Shown piece after piece: positions 161-12,243 of a DNA stretch of 12,243 bases. Below the pieces are notes generated by a model. That model was given only the letters and a program-made list of their open reading frames with translations, did no database searches and was not told where the DNA came from. The position numbers were made by a program, and so were the translations under genes. The DNA comes from Candidatus Hodarchaeota archaeon. Its GTDB lineage: Archaea > Asgardarchaeota > Heimdallarchaeia > Hodarchaeales > Hodarchaeaceae. The DNA lies in NCBI GenBank assembly GCA_029856365.1, contig JAHQWW010000116.1, positions 1-12,243 of the forward strand, read 5' to 3'. Within the stretch, counting starts at the first letter, position 1, and every line of letters starts with the position of its first letter.

Positions 161-1087
161 TTAAACCTTTGGGATGAGTGGTACTTGTCGTGTGTAGGCT
201 GCAGAATTATAATACATACAGATTTTTTCGATTTTATCAATAGGTAAGCCAGTAGTACTGCTTATGTCTGTACTTGATAGACCCTGTTCAAGACAAACCA
301 AAATTCTGTCAACATCACCAACAGGTAAGTCAAAAAAATATATATATTTATTCTGGACGCCAGGTATAAGATCAGCTTTTGATAAGTTCCGAATAGGTTC
401 TGGAAGCTCAAGGTATTCTGCTAACTGAAATATCTGGGAACGATAAAGACCTCCCAAAGGCATTAAATCAGCGCAATGGCTATGCCCCCATTTTGTGAAC
501 AATCCTGTTGATAGCTCTGTTTTATTAATTGTACCCACTAGAAAACGATTTTCTTGTTCTGCAGTCAAATATGCAACCGCCATTTGAAGCCTAGATCGAA
601 ATTTATTCAGAGAAACAATTTTTTGAATCCATTTTTCTCGGTCTGAATCTGCTTTTCCAACCATGCTATAGGTTTTTTCTTCAATTTCCTTTTTAGCTGT
701 GCTTTTCAGCAATGAGTAACTAAGTGACTGATATACCGAAGGAATGTCGCGAACAGACCCAGGTATCAGATCTTTCGACTCGAAATTCTTAAGCAAAGGT
801 TCTATATCACATCGGACAATATTCTCCTCTGTAATTCCTAAGAATTCGATTGAGGTCTCAAGTATTTCCTCTTGCTTTTCAAAATACTTATTGGTTCTTA
901 AGAGTAATTTTACTCCTTTATTATCTAATGCATCAAGCGATAATTTGGAGACAACAGTAGAGTCCATATAACCAGAGAATAAAACTAAGACTCCTTCCAC
1001 TCCCCTTTCTTCTTTAGATGTTTCAATAAAATGAACGATTCTTTCTTTAATCTCCATTATGTCTTTACTAATATCAAGCTCTTCCAA
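161..1087 (-). CDS. NH3-dependent NAD synthetase (NadE)-fold protein, divergent paralogue 1
   Basis: 308-aa ORF with NadE motifs in canonical order: PP-loop variant VLFSGYMDSTV (canonical SGGxDS), RSRLQM (ARxRM), LVGTINKTE (GTxNKSE), GLFTKWG (GYFTKYGD), DLMPLGGLYRSQIFQLAEYLELPE (DxxPxxDLYKTQVxxLAxxLGxP), ADLIPG. The TTG start at 1087 has GGTG 7 nt upstream. Several catalytic positions deviate, so nadE is not assigned. Confidence 0.8.
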   Translation of the reverse strand: MEELDISKDIMEIKERIVHFIETSKEERGVEGVLVLFSGYMDSTVVSKLSLDALDNKGVKLLLRTNKYFEKQEEILETSIEFLGITEENIVRCDIEPLLKNFESKDLIPGSVRDIPSVYQSLSYSLLKSTAKKEIEEKTYSMVGKADSDREKWIQKIVSLNKFRSRLQMAVAYLTAEQENRFLVGTINKTELSTGLFTKWGHSHCADLMPLGGLYRSQIFQLAEYLELPEPIRNLSKADLIPGVQNKYIYFFDLPVGDVDRILVCLEQGLSSTDISSTTGLPIDKIEKICMYYNSAAYTRQVPLIPKV

Positions 1088-1340: not shown

Positions 1341-2843
1341 TTAAATTACCCCAACAACGAACGCTAGGAAAGAAAGGTAGATACCGCTAAAAACAAGCAG
1401 AATGAGGGAGATTGGAACAAGTCGAAACATAAAGTATTTGAAATTTAATGGACGTCCTTCTTTTGCTAAGAGAGAAATCGCAAGAATGGAAGCAGCACTA
1501 CCAAAAGGAGTTAATCCTCCTCCAAATGCACCCGCAAAAACTAGGATAAACCATAGGAAACGTGGGTTATTTGTTACATAAGGTTCATTTATATCAGAAA
1601 CAATGGGGATTAAAGCAGCAGTCACAGGGATATTATCAAGGATTCCACTAAAAATAGAAGCAATTAATAAAATTAAAAAACCAGCAAAGAAAAGATCTCC
1701 ACCGCTTAATTCCTTAAGAGAATTTGCAATATTTTCAAGAACATGAGTGTCTTCAAGAACACCAACTAGGATGAATAGTCCTGCAAAAAAGAGCAAAGTA
1801 TCCCATGAAAGCTCACGTATGAGTCGATGCTCGTCACTCCTTGTCAAAACTATCGCTAGAATGCCTCCCAAAATGGCAATCACACCTATGGGGAAATTTA
1901 ATGGTTGAGATAAAATAAAACCCACGATTGTTATTATTAGTGATATAGCTGCTAAATAAAACCTCCTTCGATCTTCTACAACACCCCATTCATCAAGAGA
2001 AAGAATCATTTGAGTATCAATTCCATTCTTGGATACTTCTCCTAATGGAATTTTTTCAGCTGGAAAAGCCCATTTTAGATAAATAATTGTGATAGGAATC
2101 GTGATGATAAGAAATGGAATGGAAACAAGTATAAAATCAATAAATCCGATATTACCTGCATCTGTTGCTCCAACCATAATTGCAGGTAACGAGCTAACAA
2201 GGGTTGCCACACCCGCGAGACTTGTTGCGAGTACAGCACTGAGTAAAAAGGGAGTAGGATCGTAATCTAATCCATTACAAACTGTAAGGATCATTGAGCC
2301 AACTAAGATCATTGCTGTCACATTAGCTAAAACTGTAGATAATGAAAAAGTGAGGATAAAAGTGAGAGCAAAAAGAGGAAAAATATTCCCCCTTGATATT
2401 TTCAGCATGCGAATTATTAACCAATCAAAGAGTCCTGTCTCCGAGGTTGCAGCTACCAAGATTGACATACCAAAAACTACCGCTAGAACTTCCCATTCCA
2501 TGTACTCATCAATTACATGCAACCAGCGGAAATCTTCCAGTAATAAAAGGGCTAATAGCAATGACACTGAACATGCTACTAAAATTATGGTAAGTTGTAG
2601 ATGATGGTATTTAGCTACTAAAAGGAAGGTTCCAACGAAAATCAGCGAGAAAAGAATCATATTACCTGTGTGAGGATCATTTGGATAAAAAATTAAAAAT
2701 AGTCCTAAAAACAGTGCTAAAACAACGATAAAAAGTATTTCAAATAATCGTTGACTTCTAAACCTTTGATAGTCCAACAACCGAGGATGGAATGCCTTCT
2801 TTCTTTTTTCTTCTAGAATAATTTGGTCTCTTTCCTCTGTCAT
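1341..2843 (-). CDS. ArsB/NhaD-family (IT superfamily, P-protein/OCA2-like) membrane permease
   Basis: ~500-aa, highly hydrophobic polytopic protein with two internal halves: EWEVLAVVFGMSILV..SETGLFDWL and SWDTLLFFAGLFILVGVLEDTHV; LANVTAMIL and LDNIPVTAALIP; GVATLVSSLP and GGGLTPFGSAA. ATG at 2843 is preferred; the ORF track starts at the in-frame TTG at 2858. The substrate cannot be determined from sequence. Confidence 0.85.
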   Translation of the reverse strand: MTEERDQIILEEKRKKAFHPRLLDYQRFRSQRLFEILFIVVLALFLGLFLIFYPNDPHTGNMILFSLIFVGTFLLVAKYHHLQLTIILVACSVSLLLALLLLEDFRWLHVIDEYMEWEVLAVVFGMSILVAATSETGLFDWLIIRMLKISRGNIFPLFALTFILTFSLSTVLANVTAMILVGSMILTVCNGLDYDPTPFLLSAVLATSLAGVATLVSSLPAIMVGATDAGNIGFIDFILVSIPFLIITIPITIIYLKWAFPAEKIPLGEVSKNGIDTQMILSLDEWGVVEDRRRFYLAAISLIITIVGFILSQPLNFPIGVIAILGGILAIVLTRSDEHRLIRELSWDTLLFFAGLFILVGVLEDTHVLENIANSLKELSGGDLFFAGFLILLIASIFSGILDNIPVTAALIPIVSDINEPYVTNNPRFLWFILVFAGAFGGGLTPFGSAASILAISLLAKEGRPLNFKYFMFRLVPISLILLVFSGIYLSFLAFVVGVI

Positions 2844-3095
2844 TTTCCTATGCAACAACCTAACTTTGAACTATGTTAGATTCGAATTCTATGAAATTCA
2901 AACCTAAAATTATAAGAGAAAGAATTCCTTTTTATATACCTTGATAAACGTAAATGGAGTTAGTTCTTCAAGAATTTTTTGGCTGCCTTAATCCTCTTTA
3001 TTTTGTGTAATTTTTCTTTATTAGTCGTAATCATTACATCTAAAGTATTAACAACAAGTAATAAATTTCTTGGCAATATCTTTAAAGTCCTAATT

Positions 3096-3123: not shown

Positions 3124-3236
3124 GTCATTAAAAATATCAAGACAATGAATAAGTTACATCGCTAAAAATATTTAGTACTCTTACTAAATAATTTTTTACG
3201 AAAGTTATTTTCGTGCGTAATCATGGAGAAGAAAAA

Positions 3237-4184
3237 ATGACGGTAGATAACATTCTGAGAATCGATCCTGGTTATGTTAAATCGAAAATCATTAGCTATA
3301 TTCGTTCCATTATAGAGAAAAGAGATATTGAAGGACTTCTTATCCTTTATAGGGACTGTATTGAGGTAATCATGAATGTTTTTCTTGCTAAAGAAATCGT
3401 GGGAAGAGAAAATGTTAAAGTTTTGGTAACGAAGGGAAGATTTCTTTATAAGCAACCCCGTGAAGAAATGGATCCCGTTACAATCAATAAGAACTTAGAT
3501 TTACCACATGATAATGTTGTCTTTGCAAATAAAGAGAGACCCCTAAAAGAAATAAGAGAAGTTCTTTCTAGAAGTTATGAAATTAAATCTGGATTTATTG
3601 TGCCTGAGGCTGTTCCTGCTCTTAATTACAACCTTAGCTACCTCTTATTACGTGAAATGACAAGCTATGAAATTGAAAAAATGACATATGCACCTCCAGT
3701 GAAAAAACCATCTTCACGAAGAGAGAGATTCATCCAAAGAACCATTGCTCATCATAAAAGCCAAATACGTTTACGTATTCTCCTCGCGTTCCTCTTGGCT
3801 GAAAGTGAGAATAAATCTATTATCGGATCCCCAAACAAGACTGAATGGTTATTAGGGTTATTTACAAAATTTGGGATTTATCACGCTTGTGATTTCTTAC
3901 CTTTAGCTGGCCTTTATCGAACCCAAGTCATACAACTTGCAGAACATCTAGGACTTCAAGAATATATTGCCGCCAAAAAACCTCAATCACCTTCCAGCTT
4001 TGAATATTTCTTTAACCTTTCTGTAGACGAGGTTGACCGCATTCTAATACGATTGGAATCTGATTTCTCAGTAGTAAAAATCTTCGAGGAAACAGGTATT
4101 CATTTAGAAGCGATCAAAAAGGTGGATCATTATTATAGAGGGTCGAATTATGCAAGAACGGTGCCATTGATACCTGAGTATTGA
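3237..4184 (+). CDS. NadE-fold protein, divergent paralogue 2 (PP-loop lost, likely pseudoenzyme)
   Basis: The C-terminal NadE motifs are clear: IRLRI, IIGSPNKTEWLLGLFTKFG, DFLPLAGLYRTQVIQLAEHLGL, VDEVDRIL. The PP-loop position reads LLILYRDCIEV instead of SGGxDS. It aligns end to end by eye with 161..1087. ATG at 3237 (GGAG upstream) is preferred over GTG at 3213. Confidence 0.8.
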   Translation: MTVDNILRIDPGYVKSKIISYIRSIIEKRDIEGLLILYRDCIEVIMNVFLAKEIVGRENVKVLVTKGRFLYKQPREEMDPVTINKNLDLPHDNVVFANKERPLKEIREVLSRSYEIKSGFIVPEAVPALNYNLSYLLLREMTSYEIEKMTYAPPVKKPSSRRERFIQRTIAHHKSQIRLRILLAFLLAESENKSIIGSPNKTEWLLGLFTKFGIYHACDFLPLAGLYRTQVIQLAEHLGLQEYIAAKKPQSPSSFEYFFNLSVDEVDRILIRLESDFSVVKIFEETGIHLEAIKKVDHYYRGSNYARTVPLIPEY

Positions 4185-4482
4185 TACCAGAGTTGAAACC
4201 CAAGTGAGAACACATCGAAATTGCTGTAAATGTAATAACCCTTTTTATGCTAGTTATAAGGGTAAATATTATTGTCCTATGCATCTTAAAGAAAGATTAG
4301 CTAAAGAAAAAAAATCAGTGCCTAATGAAGATATGAATGAAAGCTAAACCCGAAGTCTTCATTGAATTCTTAAATTTTAAGTTCATTCTTGAGGAAAATT
4401 TCAATATAGGAGGAGGAAAAGGTTTTTCCAAAAAGAAAGTTTCTTAAGAAATCACCATAAATTCATAATATATCAAATAGAG

Positions 4483-4488
4483 TTTATA
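4483..4488 (+). promoter_or_regulatory. Possible archaeal TATA box upstream of the small GTPase
   Basis: TTTATA ends ~25 nt before ATG 4513, which would fit a short or leaderless transcript. The evidence is weak in an AT-rich background. Confidence 0.25.
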
Positions 4489-4512
4489 TTACACCATGGA
4501 GATGCCTTTAAT

Positions 4513-5064
4513 ATGTCTACTGACGATATTTTATTTGAGATGCCTCATTTCTCACAATATAAAATTGTTGTTGCTGGTGATGCGTTAGTAGGAAAGACCC
4601 AGTTAGTTTCTATATTTACTGGCAGGGGTTTTGAGCATAAACCAACTGCAGGGGCTGATATTTCATTTTTGAAACTTAAGAGTTCATCAAGTGATCAAAC
4701 AACTACGGCAATTTTTTGGGACTTATCTGGCCAACCTGCTTTTGACAAGGTACGTCCCCTTTTTTACGAGGGTGCCCATGCCATTATGTACATTTTTGAT
4801 GTTACAAGAAAGTCCACAGTCCTTTCACTTCCAAGTTGGGTGAAAGAAGCAAAGAAAATTCTCCCTGATAGTCCAGCTGTCTTAATTGGGAATAAAATTG
4901 ACTTGGAGAAAGAACGTGAAGTTAGTGACGATATAGGATTGAAATTTGCTGATAAAATGAATGCAACTTATTTTGCCACCTCGGCACTCAAGAATCAAGG
5001 TGTTGGTACAGCTTTTGCTTCAGCCATTCGTCGAGCCGTTTATTATCGTGATTCATTAAAATGA
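4513..5064 (+). CDS. Ras-superfamily small GTPase, Rab-like
   Basis: 183 aa with all G motifs: G1 GDALVGKT, G2 KPTAGADI, G3 WDLSGQ, G4 GNKID, G5 TSAL. It also has Rab-like segments (FDKVRPLFYEGA, REVS). There is no C-terminal Cys. Confidence 0.95.
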   Translation: MSTDDILFEMPHFSQYKIVVAGDALVGKTQLVSIFTGRGFEHKPTAGADISFLKLKSSSSDQTTTAIFWDLSGQPAFDKVRPLFYEGAHAIMYIFDVTRKSTVLSLPSWVKEAKKILPDSPAVLIGNKIDLEKEREVSDDIGLKFADKMNATYFATSALKNQGVGTAFASAIRRAVYYRDSLK

Positions 5065-5089
5065 AATTCTCAGTAGACTTACTAACAAT

Positions 5090-5758
5090 CTAATCAAAAT
5101 CTTTTAGAAGCTCTGCAATCCTACTATATACATTTTTAAGCTTGTTGGAGCTCAAAAGGTCAATGTATTGAATGATTCTCTCACCACCAACAAAACAAAT
5201 CTTCCAATTTGAGGGGTAAGGATCACAAATGATCCCTTTCTGGGCTAAATCGCGCGCAAGTCCACTGATATGCTTAATTAAAGAGGGATGCATCTGAGCA
5301 GGCTCTCCAGGAGCCTCAGTGGTCATTAACACAGGATAAACCCTTGAAAAGGTTTCTATTTTGGCTAATCCAATGACAGTAGGGATTATTACTCGAATTT
5401 CTTCGATTTTAAATTGAAATTTTAAATTCTGAAGTTCATTGACAAAATCTTGCCCAGTTAAATAATGAATTATCAATGCTGAAATTTCGCGATTATAATA
5501 TGGTTTTAATATAATTGGACCAATTTTGTCAAAAGAAAAGCTCCACCCAAATAGAACACTACTACCTCCTGGGTACAGTTTTGTTCCTCTCATACGAGAA
5601 CCTAATTTCTTGTTTATACGCTCTATGTCTTTACTACTCAAATTTTTATCTTTGGAAAACGCAATAATGCTTTCAACCAACTCGAGACGTTTTTGCAATG
5701 CCCTAGATGAAATTTGGTTCTTATATTCAGGAAATATAAAAACAGAGATTTGGGACAT
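5090..5758 (-). CDS. Atypical protein-kinase-like (PKL) fold protein, RIO/Bud32/Kdo-like
   Basis: Correctly ordered kinase-like elements: Gly loop LYPGGSSVLF, beta3 Lys IILKPY, alphaC Glu REISAL, IPTVIG, hinge VLMTTEAPGE, catalytic loop LAQKGIICDPYPSNW (DxxxxN), and metal-binding QYIDL. ATG at 5758 is preferred over TTG at 5782. Confidence 0.65.
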   Translation of the reverse strand: MSQISVFIFPEYKNQISSRALQKRLELVESIIAFSKDKNLSSKDIERINKKLGSRMRGTKLYPGGSSVLFGWSFSFDKIGPIILKPYYNREISALIIHYLTGQDFVNELQNLKFQFKIEEIRVIIPTVIGLAKIETFSRVYPVLMTTEAPGEPAQMHPSLIKHISGLARDLAQKGIICDPYPSNWKICFVGGERIIQYIDLLSSNKLKNVYSRIAELLKDFD

Positions 5759-5849
5759 TGTCTTGAAATTGATTCTGCACAAGTAAAATTATAAAATCTT
5801 TCCTTTCAAGATCTTTTGCAGATCTTTCGTACATATATCTATTGAAGTA

Positions 5850-7262
5850 TCAAACCCAATCTGCGGAGTCTATTTTCATCGGAAGATATGTTCCAGTCAT
5901 AAATCGCCAATTCTTTCCTGCAAGTGCTTGAATCTCAGCTTTCTTTCCCGTTTCGGTCATTATTCTGATTTGCTTTTCCCAATCTGGACGAGACTTTACA
6001 AAATCTTCCTGAAGCAGATCCTCTGCTCGTTTCATGTCATTATCTGTCATTTTAATAAGAACAGATTTTGGGATAGAATATTCCTTGATATCAGAAGGTA
6101 ACAATCCTAACCACCGAATGTCTGGAACAGCTAACTCCACACTTTCAAAACTTAAGGCTTTACTGCCAATCGAATATACTCTAAGAATATCCAAACCATA
6201 AGGATCAGCGTCTAGGAACCCCAAAATTGGAATGCTTAACTCTTCATGAACTCTCTTGATAAACATTCGTGTGGCCATATCTGGTTGGCCTGAGGCTGTT
6301 ATTAATACACATGGCAGGTAATTGAAGAATTTGTCTTCTGCTAAGTCTTGGAATACCGCGTCCTTCTCAATGACTAAGACAAATTCAGCATCACTCTCAA
6401 TATTATCGACCTGATCTAACATAGGAGTAATAGCATGCCCTCCTAATCCTTGAGTACAATCAATTCGGTCGCCACCTTCAGTAAACGACATTCTACCAAT
6501 AACTTTTCCTTTAGCAGAAGCAATTACATTTAATGAATTTCGCGAAACACGCAATAATGCCCCCAAGTCTTCAATCAATCCATCAGATACTCGTTGATTT
6601 TCAAATAAGTTTACATCACGGTAAAATAAGTGTCTTTTTGTGGCATGTTTGTCAGTTTCTAATATCTCACTTACATATCGCATTAATCCAGTTAATTGAA
6701 CTACACTCTTAACGCTACTAAGGTGACGAAACTGTCTATCAATAACATGACTGCCAAGAAGTACCATTTTAGAATTATCATCATATCCAACATTTTCGGA
6801 ACTTCTTGATGGAATACGAAATGCTGCTCCTTTGGGGTCTTCAGCTATTTCCTCAAGAAACTCTCTTGCGACTGTTTGTAAACGTTTATTTGTTTCCTCT
6901 GGAACTACATTATCGACCTTAAGAACAGACACAGGCAAATCGGCTATATCCAATGTCATCATTTTTCGTAAATCTCGAACTTTCGAAAGATCGACCTTAC
7001 GTCGGATTTGTAATACAACCTCCTCTGATTTTGCGAGCTGCCATAATGAATTAAGATTCGTTTTTTTAAGTTCTTGAAAACGCTTCGCCTTCTTTGGCCC
7101 AAAAAAAATCAAGAAAGTTTGCTTTGTTTTCAAATCAAGTTCTTTTTTCACAAATGTTTTTATGGCATTAAGTGATCCATCTTTTTCCATATCAGTTTTA
7201 ATAACTTTATTAGTGAAAGAATAATCCTCAATTGTTGCTTTAATCAATTGTTTTTCAGACAT
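5850..7262 (-). CDS. top6A: DNA topoisomerase VI subunit A (Spo11/Top6A family) with N-terminal extension
   Basis: The winged-helix catalytic motif HATKRHLFY contains Tyr214 (codon 6621-6623), followed by SDGLIEDL and SRNSLNVIASAKGKVIG. The TOPRIM domain shows VIEKDAVF (E299), ITASGQPDMATR and FLDADPYG (D351/D353), then IRWLGLLPSD and KAEIQAL. Confidence 0.96.
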   Translation of the reverse strand: MSEKQLIKATIEDYSFTNKVIKTDMEKDGSLNAIKTFVKKELDLKTKQTFLIFFGPKKAKRFQELKKTNLNSLWQLAKSEEVVLQIRRKVDLSKVRDLRKMMTLDIADLPVSVLKVDNVVPEETNKRLQTVAREFLEEIAEDPKGAAFRIPSRSSENVGYDDNSKMVLLGSHVIDRQFRHLSSVKSVVQLTGLMRYVSEILETDKHATKRHLFYRDVNLFENQRVSDGLIEDLGALLRVSRNSLNVIASAKGKVIGRMSFTEGGDRIDCTQGLGGHAITPMLDQVDNIESDAEFVLVIEKDAVFQDLAEDKFFNYLPCVLITASGQPDMATRMFIKRVHEELSIPILGFLDADPYGLDILRVYSIGSKALSFESVELAVPDIRWLGLLPSDIKEYSIPKSVLIKMTDNDMKRAEDLLQEDFVKSRPDWEKQIRIMTETGKKAEIQALAGKNWRFMTGTYLPMKIDSADWV

Positions 7263-7269
7263 GAATAAT

Positions 7270-7276
7270 TCATCCT
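7270..7276 (-). promoter_or_regulatory. Shine-Dalgarno-like site of top6A overlapping the upstream stop codon
   Basis: The minus strand reads TAG-GATGAATTATTC-ATG. AGGATGA overlaps the TAG of the giant ORF and lies 7 nt before the top6A ATG. The intergenic gap is 12 nt. Confidence 0.45.
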
Positions 7277-10200
7277 ATTCTTTCGACATATATGCATCCA
7301 ATCGTCCAACAACGTCTGCTTTTCTCCTAAGTCTGATATTAGACTTAATTTGTTTGATTTTAGCTGCTGATAATCCATAAATCTGCTTCAAACCATCTTC
7401 TGGCCAGTAGAGGAAATCAATAATCCGTGTAATCCCTCTTTTAACCAGTTCTTGAGCGACTGGAATAGGTAACCCTGCTAGTCGTACAATTGGATTTTCC
7501 AAATCTCGAATACACGCGTTTATTAGCTTTGTTGGAACAACCTCTTCAGGAATGAAGTTATATCTCTTAAGATGGAAGTAGAGGTCCTCAATATTATCAA
7601 TACCGATTTCCTGTAGGGAAGTAATATATTCTTCAGGGATCCTTACAAAATTCTCGATAGGTGTCCCTAGATTCTTTTTTCGTTTCAAAGAACCAAGATT
7701 CATTTTTCGGTATTTTGAAATCTCATACCGTTTTATTTCAAGTAGTTCTGCTAGGTCGTCTTTGGGCCAAAACAGAAACTCAATCGTAGAAGCAATCCCT
7801 GCATTGTATAATAAGGGGATCTTCTGTGGAAAGTTTTCCTGTACATTGGGTAAGATGGCAACAGGTTTTTCAAGAACCTGTTTCACAGCCTCAACAGGTT
7901 TAATAAGAGATTTTGTTAATCTTTCTGTATCTAACCGGAAGTATAGGTCAACAACATTATCAATCCCAAGTTTTTGAATTTGGTCTAACTGTTTCGGAGT
8001 AAATGCTCGAAGAGATGATAATTTAACACGAAATTCTGTATCAGTTTTTTTATGGGTAATAATATCTACTAAATTTATCGATTTTTTTGCTATATTATAT
8101 TCTTCTTCTACAATAATACCCATAGGATCTTCTAATTGGGAAAAATCAGTCTTGATCAGCTGAGTAACAGAGGTTATGCCATTGAACGCCAATGGGGTAA
8201 CATATTGAGGAGGAAGTAAAGTATAGTAAGCTAGAGATGAGTTGAGGGCATCTTTTAAATTAACCAGTCGAGATTTTATTTGATCAGAAACAGGAATTGT
8301 TTCTAAGTCGACGAATAATAAATCTTCTAATACTAGGATCCCATATTTTTCTACTTCCTCAAAATCGATGTATCCCGTTTCAACATATGTATGAAGAGGA
8401 GTATCTTCTTCGGTGATTTCTTCAGTAGCTTGAAAATCGTATTCTTTCTTCAGGTTAATTATTTCAGAGGGATTCATTCCCAATAGTTTCGCTAAAGCAC
8501 TATTTGGGGCGAAAAACCAATCAGAAATCGTTGTCACTCCATTCTGTGACAACTTCCGCAAATCACTCAATGGAAGCTCTTCAGTCAATCTGTTAATCGG
8601 AGCTTCAAGAATTTCATAAATCTTTTTGATTTCATCAATATCAAACTCTTTTCTATCCCGTAGGATTAATTCTTGTATAGAAGTAATATTTTTATCCTCT
8701 AATTCAGAAATAACTTTAGATGGAAGAACATCTGAGAAATTATGGAGTGAAATCATTTCATCTTCTAAACATTTTATTACTTCTGGCATTTTGATTCCTG
8801 TAACTAGTCCCCGAACTTTGGGTGATGTAGTACCTAATTTTTCAGCGAGTTCTCTGATATTTTTGTCCAATAATGCTCCAATACGTTTAATTGAATGCTT
8901 TTGAAGTGTTTGAATCCAATCTAAAGAAATACCAGGAATGAAACAAATTGGAACGGTCAAAAATTGAGCTATTTCAAGAAAACTAAGCGAATCTAACTCA
9001 GTATATAATTCTACGGGATCAGCTTCTAATATCGCTTCAATTCGTTCCGAAGAAGTGGAATACACATCTTGTAATGTCTCAACTCGTTTTTGTTTCAGTT
9101 TTTTAACAATTTCACGATCAACCCCCAGTACCAAACCGAGAGGTATGGCCATTATAGAGAATAATTGTTCCCATCTGTCTCTGTCAATACGTACCTTCTT
9201 ATCACCTTCTTTTTTAAGAAATATGTCTTCATTTGGGTTAGTTAAAAGATCAAAAGCAGTTTTTATTTCCGCATGATGTAATGTAGCAAGATATTTTTGA
9301 GGAAAATCAAGTCTATCAATTGATACTCGTTTTAAGAAGGTCAAAATTGCATTGAGGTTAATTGAATCTTGAATAGCCTTTATTCTAGCTGATGGTAACA
9401 TTGTCCGCGCCTCAAGTTCATCCTGAGACTCCATCATTAGATCTAAAACCATTCTAATTTTTCCTTTCCGTAAAATGTTATTTTCTTCCTGTGTAGAAAC
9501 TGGACTAATCTCAATCGGCATTTCTAAAACAGTTTTTACGTCTACAATTTCCTGCCAATCGATATCGCTATTAACAAAGGTTTTGGGTGTAGCAACATAA
9601 TATAAATCTGCTAAACTCTCTATTCCTAAACGAGCGAGTTTTCTAACGGTGTTTCTATCGAAAAGAGAAACTCGGGCTAAAGGAACCATCTTTTCCTCTT
9701 TAATGGCCTTAATGTTAGTGAAATTAAGATCTTTTTTCATTGTGATCACTTGTTTAAGATCGAGATCTAGAATATTTGCGATCTGGTCATCAGGAGTTGT
9801 CAAAAAATCAAAAATAGTTAAAATTTGTTCATCAGCTAATATTTGAAGTTGTTTTCGGGGGAGTCCTTCAAGAATTGATACCGATGTTTCTGTCGATTCA
9901 CGCAATTGGACAAGATTAACCTTCTTTCTTAAATTAGCAACATTCTCTGGAGGGGTTTTTAGAATTTCAGAGAGCTCTTCTTCAGATGTTATTAAGAATC
10001 GAATTATTGTATCAATCCGTTTCTTAACCAAATTATCAATGTATTTGTCTGCAATGATCCCACTGAGAAATGTCATGGGAAGTTCAAGTGCTGAGATTGC
10101 TTTCTCTACATAGCTCCAATCAAGCTCATCATCTTCATCCAGCATATCTTCTGAGGCTGTGAAATAGAGATCTTCTACTGTTTCGATACCATAACCTAAT

Positions 10201-12242
10201 AATGTTGAGATTGTTTTACGATTGTATCCACAAACGTTTTCTAGTGGCATTCCATGTTCTTTTATCGCTACTGACTGTTTCAACTCTTCAATACGTTTTA
10301 GAGACATTGGAAGGATTGATTTCAGCTCATCAATAGGCCAGTAAATTAGTTTGATTATTTGATCGATTCCACTACTGGCTAATTTTTCAAGACCATCATG
10401 GGAGACGCGAATTGCTGACTGATCAGAACTGCTTCGTAACTGAAGCATTGCCACTGGAGTCTCAAGGATTCGTTGATATCTTTCAATTGTCTTCCACCTC
10501 ACACCCATTACCCCAAAAGTGTCTTTCTGGGCACAGAAATATATATTTTCTACCGTAGAGTATCCTTTAGCATTCAAGGATTTCATTTCAGTGGCAGATA
10601 AAACACCCAGGTCAACGAGTGGCATACCAGGGTTGAATTCAGTGAAATCTGACAATATATTATTTACAAAATTTTCGTCACGTCCAATTATTTCTGCAAT
10701 ATTTGCTCTTGACCAACTAATCAAATTAATAAAGGTATTTATATGGTTATTATGGAGGTTAGCAACCCATCTAGGTTTGATTTGAGGGATTCGTGAAATT
10801 GGTGTAAGAAAAAGTGTATCCAGTTGTGATAAATCACGATTAGAGAGGTAAAATTGTTTTATTTTTTCATTTGAATAAGGAAGATTGTAATAAAGGCCCT
10901 GAAGGCTAAGATCTGACTGAAGTAGCTTTTGCCAAGATTTACTCTCCAAATTACTTGTTAGTACAGAGAGAGGAAGGCTTTTGGAATCGACAAGATTTTT
11001 AATTTCATCGGGGGAAATTTTGCTTTTTGTTCGCTCAATAAGCTTGTATGACATTCCCGTTTTTCGATGTAAATCGGTGTCTGGCCAGATAAGAAAATCA
11101 ATAATTCGTGAAACACCTAAGTGATGAAGTGTCTGATAGTATTTACTTGGAATAGGAAGAAAACAAATAGGAACATTTAGGAGATTGAGTAATTCTTCTA
11201 TCCTATTATGAAATGTCTTAGGTTTCAATGTATGCTCGGATAAAGTGGCTTGCAACTCTTCTAGACAGAGAATATGTTGAGAATCAAGTTTATCACGTTC
11301 TTCTGGGGTTAAAAGAGGGATAGGTGTGCCATATGTTCTTTTGATTGTTTCTAGGATTTCTTGATCCATATTTTTTAGCTTTAACAGAGTCATTGATGGA
11401 TAGCGTGTAAAATCATAAACCGTTTGAATTCCCAAATTCTTTAGCTGGGTTTCTAATTCTAAATCAAGCCACCAGGCGGCTTTTGTAGGGAATATTTCAT
11501 GCTCTTGCTCAATTTGCTCTAAAATTTCGTCCTGTTTCATGGATATAAGATGAGGCACAAAATCTCGAATAATCTGTAAGTCTTTTTCATTTGCTAGAAG
11601 AAAATCTATGAATCCTTTAATTTCAAGACGGTCCAAATCTGATATCATTACTTCTTGAAGAGCAGCAACTTTCAAGAAAGCTTTCTCTTCGTTTAGCTGT
11701 TCAAACTCTTCGTTTTGAACTCTTTTCGAGCGAAGGATTAGATTCTCAACCAATTCTGATATGTCTGCTAATTTTTCAGTTGGGGTCTGTAAAAATTCAT
11801 TGATTTTTGAAATATTTCTTCCTCTTAAACGTGGTGTGACACGATAATCCATCCAATCAAAAGTTGCAGCACCAATTACTTTCTCAGGGTCAATGTATCC
11901 TTCTTTTATACCACTTTTGTTTTCTTTTTTAACGCTTTCAAGTAATAGAATTGACAAATTTGGAATTGTTGATATTTTTTCTGGGAATGCAATCATATAA
12001 TCTAAAATATTATGAATCTTTGCCGATTTCAGGTTTTTTTCCACTTTTTCAGTTACCCAAGGAAATATTCTCAGACTATATGTTTTTCCTGGATTATTTA
12101 CCAGATGTTCATCTATTGCGTTTTGTTTTGCCTCATAAATCAGTTTTTCAGGAAAACTCTCTACTAACCGTAGTTGGGAAATGGAGGTAGCAAAAAAATC
12201 AAGAGATGAGACAATCCATCTTTTATTTAATGCTTTATGAAT
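7275..12242 (-). CDS. Giant tandem helix-hairpin-helix (alphaCTD/RadA-NTD/HHH_5-like) repeat protein, 5'-partial (>=1655 aa)
   Basis: The frame stays open upstream of the tracked GTG (12044) to the window edge, adding 66 codons (IHKALNKRWIVSSLDFFATSISQLRLVESFPEKLIYEAKQN...IFPWVTEK) that themselves fit the repeat consensus. The recurrent motif is P-h-x-x-h...L-x-x-x-G-I-x-x-h-x-D-[FL]-h-x-x-P-x-x-x-L, e.g. PIVRLAGLPIPVAQELVKRGITRIIDFLYWPEDGLKQIYGLSAAKIKQIK. Confidence 0.9.
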   Translation of the reverse strand: MHKALNKRWIVSSLDFFATSISQLRLVESFPEKLIYEAKQNAIDEHLVNNPGKTYSLRIFPWVTEKVEKNLKSAKIHNILDYMIAFPEKISTIPNLSILLLESVKKENKSGIKEGYIDPEKVIGAATFDWMDYRVTPRLRGRNISKINEFLQTPTEKLADISELVENLILRSKRVQNEEFEQLNEEKAFLKVAALQEVMISDLDRLEIKGFIDFLLANEKDLQIIRDFVPHLISMKQDEILEQIEQEHEIFPTKAAWWLDLELETQLKNLGIQTVYDFTRYPSMTLLKLKNMDQEILETIKRTYGTPIPLLTPEERDKLDSQHILCLEELQATLSEHTLKPKTFHNRIEELLNLLNVPICFLPIPSKYYQTLHHLGVSRIIDFLIWPDTDLHRKTGMSYKLIERTKSKISPDEIKNLVDSKSLPLSVLTSNLESKSWQKLLQSDLSLQGLYYNLPYSNEKIKQFYLSNRDLSQLDTLFLTPISRIPQIKPRWVANLHNNHINTFINLISWSRANIAEIIGRDENFVNNILSDFTEFNPGMPLVDLGVLSATEMKSLNAKGYSTVENIYFCAQKDTFGVMGVRWKTIERYQRILETPVAMLQLRSSSDQSAIRVSHDGLEKLASSGIDQIIKLIYWPIDELKSILPMSLKRIEELKQSVAIKEHGMPLENVCGYNRKTISTLLGYGIETVEDLYFTASEDMLDEDDELDWSYVEKAISALELPMTFLSGIIADKYIDNLVKKRIDTIIRFLITSEEELSEILKTPPENVANLRKKVNLVQLRESTETSVSILEGLPRKQLQILADEQILTIFDFLTTPDDQIANILDLDLKQVITMKKDLNFTNIKAIKEEKMVPLARVSLFDRNTVRKLARLGIESLADLYYVATPKTFVNSDIDWQEIVDVKTVLEMPIEISPVSTQEENNILRKGKIRMVLDLMMESQDELEARTMLPSARIKAIQDSINLNAILTFLKRVSIDRLDFPQKYLATLHHAEIKTAFDLLTNPNEDIFLKKEGDKKVRIDRDRWEQLFSIMAIPLGLVLGVDREIVKKLKQKRVETLQDVYSTSSERIEAILEADPVELYTELDSLSFLEIAQFLTVPICFIPGISLDWIQTLQKHSIKRIGALLDKNIRELAEKLGTTSPKVRGLVTGIKMPEVIKCLEDEMISLHNFSDVLPSKVISELEDKNITSIQELILRDRKEFDIDEIKKIYEILEAPINRLTEELPLSDLRKLSQNGVTTISDWFFAPNSALAKLLGMNPSEIINLKKEYDFQATEEITEEDTPLHTYVETGYIDFEEVEKYGILVLEDLLFVDLETIPVSDQIKSRLVNLKDALNSSLAYYTLLPPQYVTPLAFNGITSVTQLIKTDFSQLEDPMGIIVEEEYNIAKKSINLVDIITHKKTDTEFRVKLSSLRAFTPKQLDQIQKLGIDNVVDLYFRLDTERLTKSLIKPVEAVKQVLEKPVAILPNVQENFPQKIPLLYNAGIASTIEFLFWPKDDLAELLEIKRYEISKYRKMNLGSLKRKKNLGTPIENFVRIPEEYITSLQEIGIDNIEDLYFHLKRYNFIPEEVVPTKLINACIRDLENPIVRLAGLPIPVAQELVKRGITRIIDFLYWPEDGLKQIYGLSAAKIKQIKSNIRLRRKADVVGRLDAYMSKE
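7320..12242 (-). repeat. Protein-level tandem array of ~25-27 degenerate 50-65 aa HhH-like modules
   Basis: Module cores counted by eye include AKIHNILDY, RNISKINEF, LEIKGFIDF, LGIQTVYDF, LGVSRIIDF, NHINTFINL, KGYSTVENIYF, SGIDQIIKL, YGIETVEDLYF, KRIDTIIRF, EQILTIFDF, LGIESLADLYY, GKIRMVLDL, AEIKTAFDL, KRVETLQDV, HSIKRIGAL, KNITSIQEL, NGVTTISDW, YGILVLEDL, NGITSVTQL, LGIDNVVDLYF, AGIASTIEF, IGIDNIEDLYF and RGITRIIDF. No nucleotide-level identity between units is obvious. Confidence 0.8.
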
Positions 12243-12243
12243 A

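Follow-up and report, generated by a model that had tools for sequence, protein, structure and literature searches.

A giant helix-hairpin-helix arm on the B subunit of topoisomerase VI in Hodarchaeales archaea

Type IIB topoisomerases are regarded as compact enzymes, with a B subunit that ends shortly after its transducer domain. The canonical B subunits (Top6B) of topoisomerase VI (Topo VI), for example, those of S. shibatae (530 amino acids (aa); 1MX0/2ZBK) and M. mazei (621 aa, with an Ig-like C-terminal domain (CTD); 2Q2E), are composed of GHKL, H2TH, and transducer domains, and their genes are positioned directly upstream of top6A. Here we analyzed contig JAHQWW010000116.1 (assembly GCA_029856365.1) of Candidatus Hodarchaeota archaeon, of which the full 12,243 nucleotides (nt) are referred to as the window. 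The window corresponds to the entire contig C145 of the source metagenome-assembled genome (MAG; 204 contigs, 83.6% complete) and contains top6A directly preceded, on the same strand, by a long open reading frame (ORF) made of helix-hairpin-helix (HhH) modules. This frame is almost certainly the C-terminal 72% of the 2311-aa ATPase subunit (Top6B) of the only Topo VI in this organism. The Hodarchaeales protein shares GHKL, H2TH, and transducer domains end to end with canonical Top6B, as well as the gene position upstream of top6A, whereas the canonical proteins lack its approximately 1,790 post-transducer residues (about 28 modules and a basic tip resembling a PCNA-interacting peptide (PIP)). 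Canonical Topo VI also has a Top6A without a ubiquitin-like (Ubl) domain; in Hodarchaeales, Top6A has a predicted domain of this type, and top6B shares a predicted operon with gyrBA.

In known Top6B forms, the C terminus consists of one or two helices or of a CTD of about 100 aa, and lineage-specific C-terminal extensions ("a globular domain") have been described in gyrase-bearing Asgard archaea (Villain et al. 2022, PMC9348778). A 2025 replisome study (PMC12680538) discussed the occurrence of more than one Top6A/B pair and, in Top6A, a eukaryote-like motif. In the literature on Asgard and archaeal Topo VI that we searched, neither the HhH array and its size nor the Ubl domain is mentioned. 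A preliminary description of the window, made from the sequence alone, knew of no account of an HhH-armed Top6B, and we found none either, although NCBI already names homologues of the protein Top6B. The name is thus already known; the HhH arm and the Top6A Ubl domain are without a published description that we could find.

A long C-terminal tandem array of (HhH)2-type domains is shared with topoisomerase V (Topo V) of Methanopyrus kandleri, a type IC enzyme with 12 (HhH)2 domains. Topo V is a monomer of an unrelated catalytic class, however, whereas the Hodarchaeales protein is a type IIB ATPase subunit. The array of Topo V is half as long as that of the Hodarchaeales protein, and the latter is acidic and made of modules closer to the RAD51 N-terminal domain (NTD) and to the CTD of the RNA polymerase alpha subunit (alpha-CTD).

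According to the ORF listing, the long frame (7275..12242, minus strand) encodes 1655 aa and is open as far as the contig end. A protein search identified P0003, a 2311-aa protein from another assembly, as near-identical to the long frame across all 1655 residues, the sole difference being residue 764 (Asn in the window at about position 11920, minus strand; Ile in P0003). Ahead of the array, P0003 carries Pfam matches to HATPase_c (residues 44-139), an H2TH-like stretch (254-327), and Topo-VIb_trans PF09239 (350-510, 2.2e-51), all in frame. The preliminary description had offered a Top6B with an enormous HhH tail as one of two readings and had named these three domains as the ones to look for in the missing N terminus; this reading proved correct. 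P0003 scores 439.5 bits against the NCBIfam Top6B equivalog NF003218 (PRK04184.1), above the cut-off of 274, and 349 against TIGR01052, under the cut-off of 380.7. Its residues 11-509 align to 1mx0/2zbk at 1e-78 (PDB phmmer). The alignment to 1mx0 indicates that the GHKL motifs are retained, namely the E/N of the N-box (ELVENGLDA), DNGSG, and GLGAK, as is the switch-Lys motif of the transducer (SSKIPF, aligned to STKIPY). Judging from these motifs, the Topo VI core is apparently canonical and active.

In the source MAG, Top6B residues 1-134, including the N-box, are encoded at the very end of contig C160 (C160:154165-154566), in agreement with the earlier proposal that the N terminus lies outside the window. 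Residues 135-656 are unassembled in the MAG and were taken from P0003. A search of the source MAG with PF09239 gave no match because the transducer region falls in this assembly gap. We identify the frame as part of Top6B itself because core and array are fused in P0003, because the gene start lies on C160, and because G009, a closed genome of the same genus, has the continuous order gyrB, gyrA, top6B (2311 aa), top6A (470 aa). The search also gave approximately 30 orthologues of 2279-2330 aa with 54-77% identity, assigned to Hodarchaeales, Hodarchaeota, or Heimdallarchaeota, several of which carry the NCBI name "DNA topoisomerase VI subunit B."

The second reading in the preliminary description was a stand-alone accessory subunit comparable to plant RHL1/BIN4 or to Spo11 partners, with a normal Top6B encoded elsewhere. 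The window alone indeed shows no Top6B domain by Pfam, and PF09239 is without a match in the incomplete MAG. However, the missing domains fall in the assembly gap, the core is fused in frame with the array in the near-identical 2311-aa protein and in about 30 orthologues, and in G009 a single uninterrupted ORF of 2311 aa is the only Top6B. We therefore reject this reading, to which we attach practically no probability. RHL1/BIN4 and Spo11 partners are separate polypeptides without HhH arrays, whereas the Hodarchaeales extension is present in cis on Top6B. These factors provide extra DNA- or chromatin-binding capacity on a type IIB core, and the possible analogy is functional only. It is scarcely conceivable, too, that the giant gene is an artefact of assembly or gene calling, or a decaying repeat expansion without function. 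The source MAG does break within the gene, but a length of 2311-2346 aa recurs in at least 15 independent genomes, including two single-contig ones, the frame is free of internal stops, the sequence is conserved without indels down to 54% identity, and the fold prediction is confident. The features of the window that concern Topo VI are as follows:

7275..12243, minus strand: 3' part of top6B, encoding residues 657-2311 of the 2311-aa Top6B
7344..12203, minus strand: HhH array of about 27 predicted five-helix (HhH)2-type modules of about 64 aa each (Top6B residues 670-2289)
7278..9347, minus strand: modelled stretch of the arm, predicted to be all-helical (Top6B residues 1622-2311)
7287..7334, minus strand: conserved C-terminal peptide, RLRRK (2293-2297) then VGRLDAYM (2301-2308), predicted disordered with a predicted local distance difference test (pLDDT) score below 50
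7263..7274, minus strand: 12-nt spacer from the top6B stop to the top6A start, read from the sequence
5850..7262, minus strand: top6A, 470 aa, identified by Pfam and by alignment to 2zbk_A
6948..7262, minus strand: N-terminal extension of Top6A, residues 1 to about 105, a predicted beta-grasp, ubiquitin-like domain

The arm that follows the transducer has approximately 28 modules in about 1,790 aa. A hidden Markov model (HMM) iterated from one module detected 25 modules in the full protein (residues 578-2289, with a period of about 64 aa), 24 to 25 of which fall within the window part. Two wider gaps between detected modules probably hold degenerate ones. The 25 to 27 HhH-like modules counted in the preliminary description are thus in line with the 25 detected by the iterated HMM and the approximately 27 estimated here. 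In Pfam searches, the long frame matched RAD51D_N at 86.7 bits (cut-off 27.3) and gave traces of HHH_5, IMS_HHH_1, and RNA_pol_A_CTD. There are two flavours of module, about 21 of B type (I..IIDFL.WP..eL) and 6 of A type (GIE.VEDLYF ... LE.PI); the latter are located at residues 1201, 1326, 1515, about 1952, 2067, and 2188 and have a degenerate second half. A strict alternation of A and B modules was considered and rejected: the two flavours are real, but their order does not alternate.

In an alignment of 27 orthologues (54-77% identity; 2348 columns for 2311 residues), mean identity was 0.67 in the arm and 0.85 in the core, with almost no indels. Comparison of Top6B with itself by BLAST gave no off-diagonal match at E <0.01, so that an origin by recent duplication or as a higher-order repeat is without support. 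Because no such match exists, the modules are best understood as ancient paralogues, each kept at its own position. Judging from these alignments, the arm is an ancient set of modules conserved position by position and not a drifting repeat. What is conserved between modules is the hydrophobic core, the Gly and Thr of the first hairpin (G10/T13), and one Asp, and helix 1 of the modules is enriched in K/R.

An AlphaFold2 (AF2) model of residues 1622-2311, built from 26 sequences, has a mean pLDDT of 82.5 and a predicted template modelling (pTM) score of 0.58. It contains about five helices per 64-aa module according to DSSP and no disordered linkers, and its last 16 residues are disordered. The model was judged by pLDDT and pTM only and bears on single modules, not on the geometry between modules. 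Single modules superimpose on the N-terminal domains of RAD51, RAD51C, Dmc1, and RadA with VIA Z scores of 7.3-8.9 (root-mean-square deviation 2.1-2.4 A over 56-63 residues, at most 30% identity), on RNA polymerase alpha-CTD with Z scores of 6.4-7.3, and on the Dbh thumb with a Z score of 8.0. The modules have the five-helix (HhH)2 fold, with a second hairpin that is degenerate in most of them. This fold is shared with the N-terminal domains of RAD51, RadA, RAD51C, and RAD51D and with alpha-CTD; these proteins have one such domain each, whereas the Hodarchaeales Top6B chains about 28 without linkers.

A Foldseek search with the whole 690-aa arm model gave no significant match, the best being designed toroids (E 0.02); chains of Topo V (2csb, 8df9) were among the weak matches at E of about 0.5. 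In Topo V, sites for apurinic/apyrimidinic (AP) and deoxyribose phosphate (dRP) lyase activity reside within the HhH repeats. By analogy to this combination of a topoisomerase with a long (HhH)2 array, and in view of these weak structural matches, the arm might have a second enzymatic activity, for example a Topo V-like AP/dRP lyase, that would make the protein a combined topoisomerase and repair enzyme. We consider this very unlikely. There is no sequence match to Topo V (PDB phmmer at E <=0.01 gave only Top6B chains), the modules match RAD51-NTD and alpha-CTD better than Topo V, and no conserved lysine cluster was identified.

The distribution of the arm was surveyed in 300 genomes of the phylum, which include 18 of the genus besides the source MAG. 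In 17 of these 18, there is exactly one Top6B, the giant form, with frames of 2311-2346 aa unless cut by contig ends; a separate top6B, which the preliminary description had asked about, was not found there, the closed genome G009 included. In other families of the class, the Top6B frames are 4140-4305 aa, about 3470-3590 aa, or 4244 aa long. One family has two pairs, a canonical one (B about 500 aa, A 378 aa) and one with a B subunit of 1110-1155 aa that gives classical HHH_5 matches. Most of the remaining phylum has a Top6B of 500-680 aa.

The arms in related families span about 600 to 3,700 aa and are collinear with that of the 2311-aa form. Residues 10-1070, 1137-2090, and 2103-2292 of the latter match 5-1110, 1268-2250, and 3918-4106 of a 4184-aa form, respectively, and its first 753 residues match a 1114-aa form. 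The 4184-aa form has a single internal block of approximately 1,650 aa, or about 26 modules, that the 2311-aa form lacks. The other Top6B arms of the Heimdall group (proteins of about 1,114, 3,470-3,590, and 4,140-4,305 aa) thus have the same collinear architecture, and they differ from the 2311-aa form in detail: the 4,184-aa protein has about 26 more modules and a T/K-rich tail, whereas the 2311-aa form ends in RLRRK...LDxYM. The tail of the 4184-aa form (G025:C1, 4812-5000) is a long, low-complexity, Thr/Lys-rich stretch in place of this peptide.

Outside the class, G048 has a collinear giant Top6B of at least 2289 aa. Directly upstream of this gene (G048:C6, 10330-14001) are genes for a 968-aa HEAT-repeat protein and a second Top6A-type Toprim protein, and a run of masked or unknown bases truncates its 3' end. 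The 1348-aa Top6B of G227 (G227:C93, 594-4640) was rejected as an HhH giant; its size results from about 545 aa inserted into the core, possibly an intein, which separate the GHKL region from the H2TH/transducer region. When 1.84 billion representative sequences were searched exhaustively with 690 aa of the arm, only 36 clusters were returned, mostly of 2,200-4,341 aa. The array was not seen on another enzyme; the shorter clusters that were scanned show HhH modules alone, with no catalytic domain of another kind, and may be fragments.

The stop codon of the long frame (TAG at 7277-7275) precedes the top6A start codon (ATG at 7262) by 12 nt, as first noted in the preliminary description; the spacer has the sequence gatgaattattc and is 9 nt long in the relatives G009 and G025. 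The Shine-Dalgarno-like motif that had been proposed over the stop is present insofar as AGGA/AGGATG overlaps the stop, but it is a weak match. On C160, gyrB (653 aa) and gyrA (834 aa) are positioned directly upstream of the top6B start (C160:146000-154567, locus positions 3680-8567). gyrB is 20 nt upstream of gyrA, whose stop codon shares one base with the ATG of top6B (TAATG). The gene order is that of a predicted operon, gyrB-gyrA-top6B-top6A, in which Top6B would be translated just upstream of Top6A. This order is not found at the loci of G025, G048, G030, and G023, and among the loci inspected the linkage of giant top6B to gyrBA occurs only in the family of this genus. It has been proposed that Top6B C termini co-evolve with gyrase (Villain et al. 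2022, PMC9348778). GyrA was found in families f1, f3, and f5, but neither in G048, which is 100% complete and has an arm-bearing Top6B of at least 2289 aa, nor in G030. A strict link between arm and gyrase is therefore rejected, and with it an extension of the earlier proposal to a strict adaptation of the arm to gyrase.

The C terminus of Top6B, N[IV]RLRRK.DV[VL]G[RQ]LD[SA]YM, is almost invariant across the family of this genus, yet predicted to be disordered. It fits the pattern h-x-x-L-x-x-Y-M following a basic patch, RLRRK. Compared with the PIP consensus Q-x-x-[LIM]-x-x-[FY]-[FY], positions 4 and 7 fit, whereas Gln is missing at position 1 and position 8 is occupied by Met. In the same genome, Fen1 ends in KRRKIKQKTDQLALDKFF, which resembles the Top6B tip, one PolB ends in GQVNLMEFFG, and RNase HII and another PolB have ends without Gln (LKTLEEFL, NPTLESFL) that the Top6B tip likewise resembles. 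By its sequence we class the tip as PIP-like, outside the canonical PIP-box class.

With its intact canonical core, the enzyme would carry out ATP-driven strand passage as an A2B2 tetramer, as in S. shibatae or M. mazei. Each tetramer would possess two arms that could act as long tethers. The mildly basic first helix and the hairpin of each module could make many weak contacts with the DNA backbone, and the terminal basic, PIP-like peptide could dock on DNA or on the sliding clamp (PCNA). Held in this way to the chromosome, or close to the replisome, the decatenase would be more likely to encounter DNA crossings. That the arm is a DNA or sliding-clamp tether of this kind, combining weak multivalent DNA contacts with docking of the tip, is a tentative proposal with a reasonable chance of being right. 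As an overall explanation of the locus, a giant-armed Top6B with a tethering role is the one that we favor, with modest confidence.

Several observations weigh against this explanation. The arm is acidic (net charge -39, pI 5.4; the core has a pI of 9.3), the Gly of the second hairpin is kept in only 7 of the 17 modules scored, and the canonical GhG is replaced by G-I-x-T. The PIP-like tip has no Gln where the consensus requires one, and its motif closes with Y-M in place of F-F. Moreover, the full protein is inferred by way of P0003, with residues 135-656 missing from the MAG assembly. Because of the acidity of the arm and its degenerate hairpin signatures, strong DNA binding along its whole length is doubtful, and on these sequence properties a simple reading as a Topo V-like DNA binder is weakened.

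The same properties would suit an arm that serves as a rigid protein scaffold or spacer, holding partners or setting the distance between the core and an anchor at its tip (PCNA, chromatin, or the Top6A Ubl domain). In accord with this, conservation between modules is mostly of the hydrophobic core, the strict position-by-position conservation with almost no indels is as expected of a defined architecture, and the tip peptide is conserved. RAD51-NTD-like domains also make protein and nucleosome contacts in solved complexes (8xbw). Against it stand the lack of a known partner, the DNA-binding role that HhH, alpha-CTD, and RAD51-NTD folds have in most known contexts, and the basic bias that helix 1 retains. 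We consider a scaffold somewhat unlikely, but it is the chief alternative to the tether.

The partner subunit encoded by the 470-aa ORF is Top6A, with Pfam matches to TP6A_N (2.7e-18) and Toprim (3.5e-63) and an alignment over residues 121-470 with 2zbk_A of S. shibatae (6e-62). The catalytic motifs are kept, including the Tyr of HLFYR (Y214), the Toprim Glu in IEKDAVF (E299), and DADPYG. Approximately 105 extra residues at the N terminus were modelled by AF2 with a pLDDT of 77.8 as a beta-grasp with the order E-E-H-E-H-E-H. In Foldseek searches, this model matched PB1, UBL, SUMO, and ubiquitin (E 3.5e-4 to 7e-3; template modelling score by target 0.56-0.72). In Pfam, the Top6A of the window has no match to ubiquitin or Rad60-SLD; the orthologues P0106, P0109, and that of G048 pass both, at 27-30 bits. 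The enzymes of S. shibatae and M. mazei lack the N-terminal domain, which is conserved in length across the class, with about 120 Top6A homologues of 460-483 aa indicating that the extension is class-wide. The Top6A N terminus is thus predicted to be a ubiquitin-like beta-grasp domain. A further proposal, which we regard as distinctly unlikely, is that Topo VI is an anchored machine in these archaea, which are placed closest to eukaryotes. Its arm would be of measured length, rigid, and docked by the PIP-like tip on the clamp or chromatin, and the Top6A Ubl domain would provide a second, regulatable handle. In this view, the arm and the Ubl domain would be cis-encoded precursors of the accessory factors that eukaryotic Topo VI and Spo11 complexes require as separate proteins.

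In a whole Asgard class, the only Topo VI, presumably an essential enzyme, has a B subunit 4 to 8 times as large as usual. Should the arm prove to be a tether to DNA or the replisome, these archaea would offer a natural experiment on how decatenases locate DNA crossings and on how Topo VI and gyrase divide their work. The architecture also bears on the shape of the Topo VI/Spo11 machinery in the eukaryotic ancestor. In addition, Top6B serves as a phylogenetic marker, for which the giant tails need to be trimmed.

Among the neighbouring genes in the window is a 230-aa ORF (5090-5782, minus strand) that follows top6A on its strand after 67 nt and gave no match in Pfam. It shares 67% identity with an ORF located 6 nt after top6A in G009; a structure search of the ESM Atlas gave small Kdo/RIO/APH-like kinase folds (template modelling scores 0.56-0.58), to be taken as a lead only. 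A Ras-family small GTPase of a type typical of Asgard archaea (4513-5064, plus strand; PF00071, 6e-34) is also a neighbour in G009. ORFs of the NAD-synthase family (161-1087, minus strand, and 3213-4184, plus strand) are located on either side of a CitMHS-type transporter (1341-2858, minus strand).

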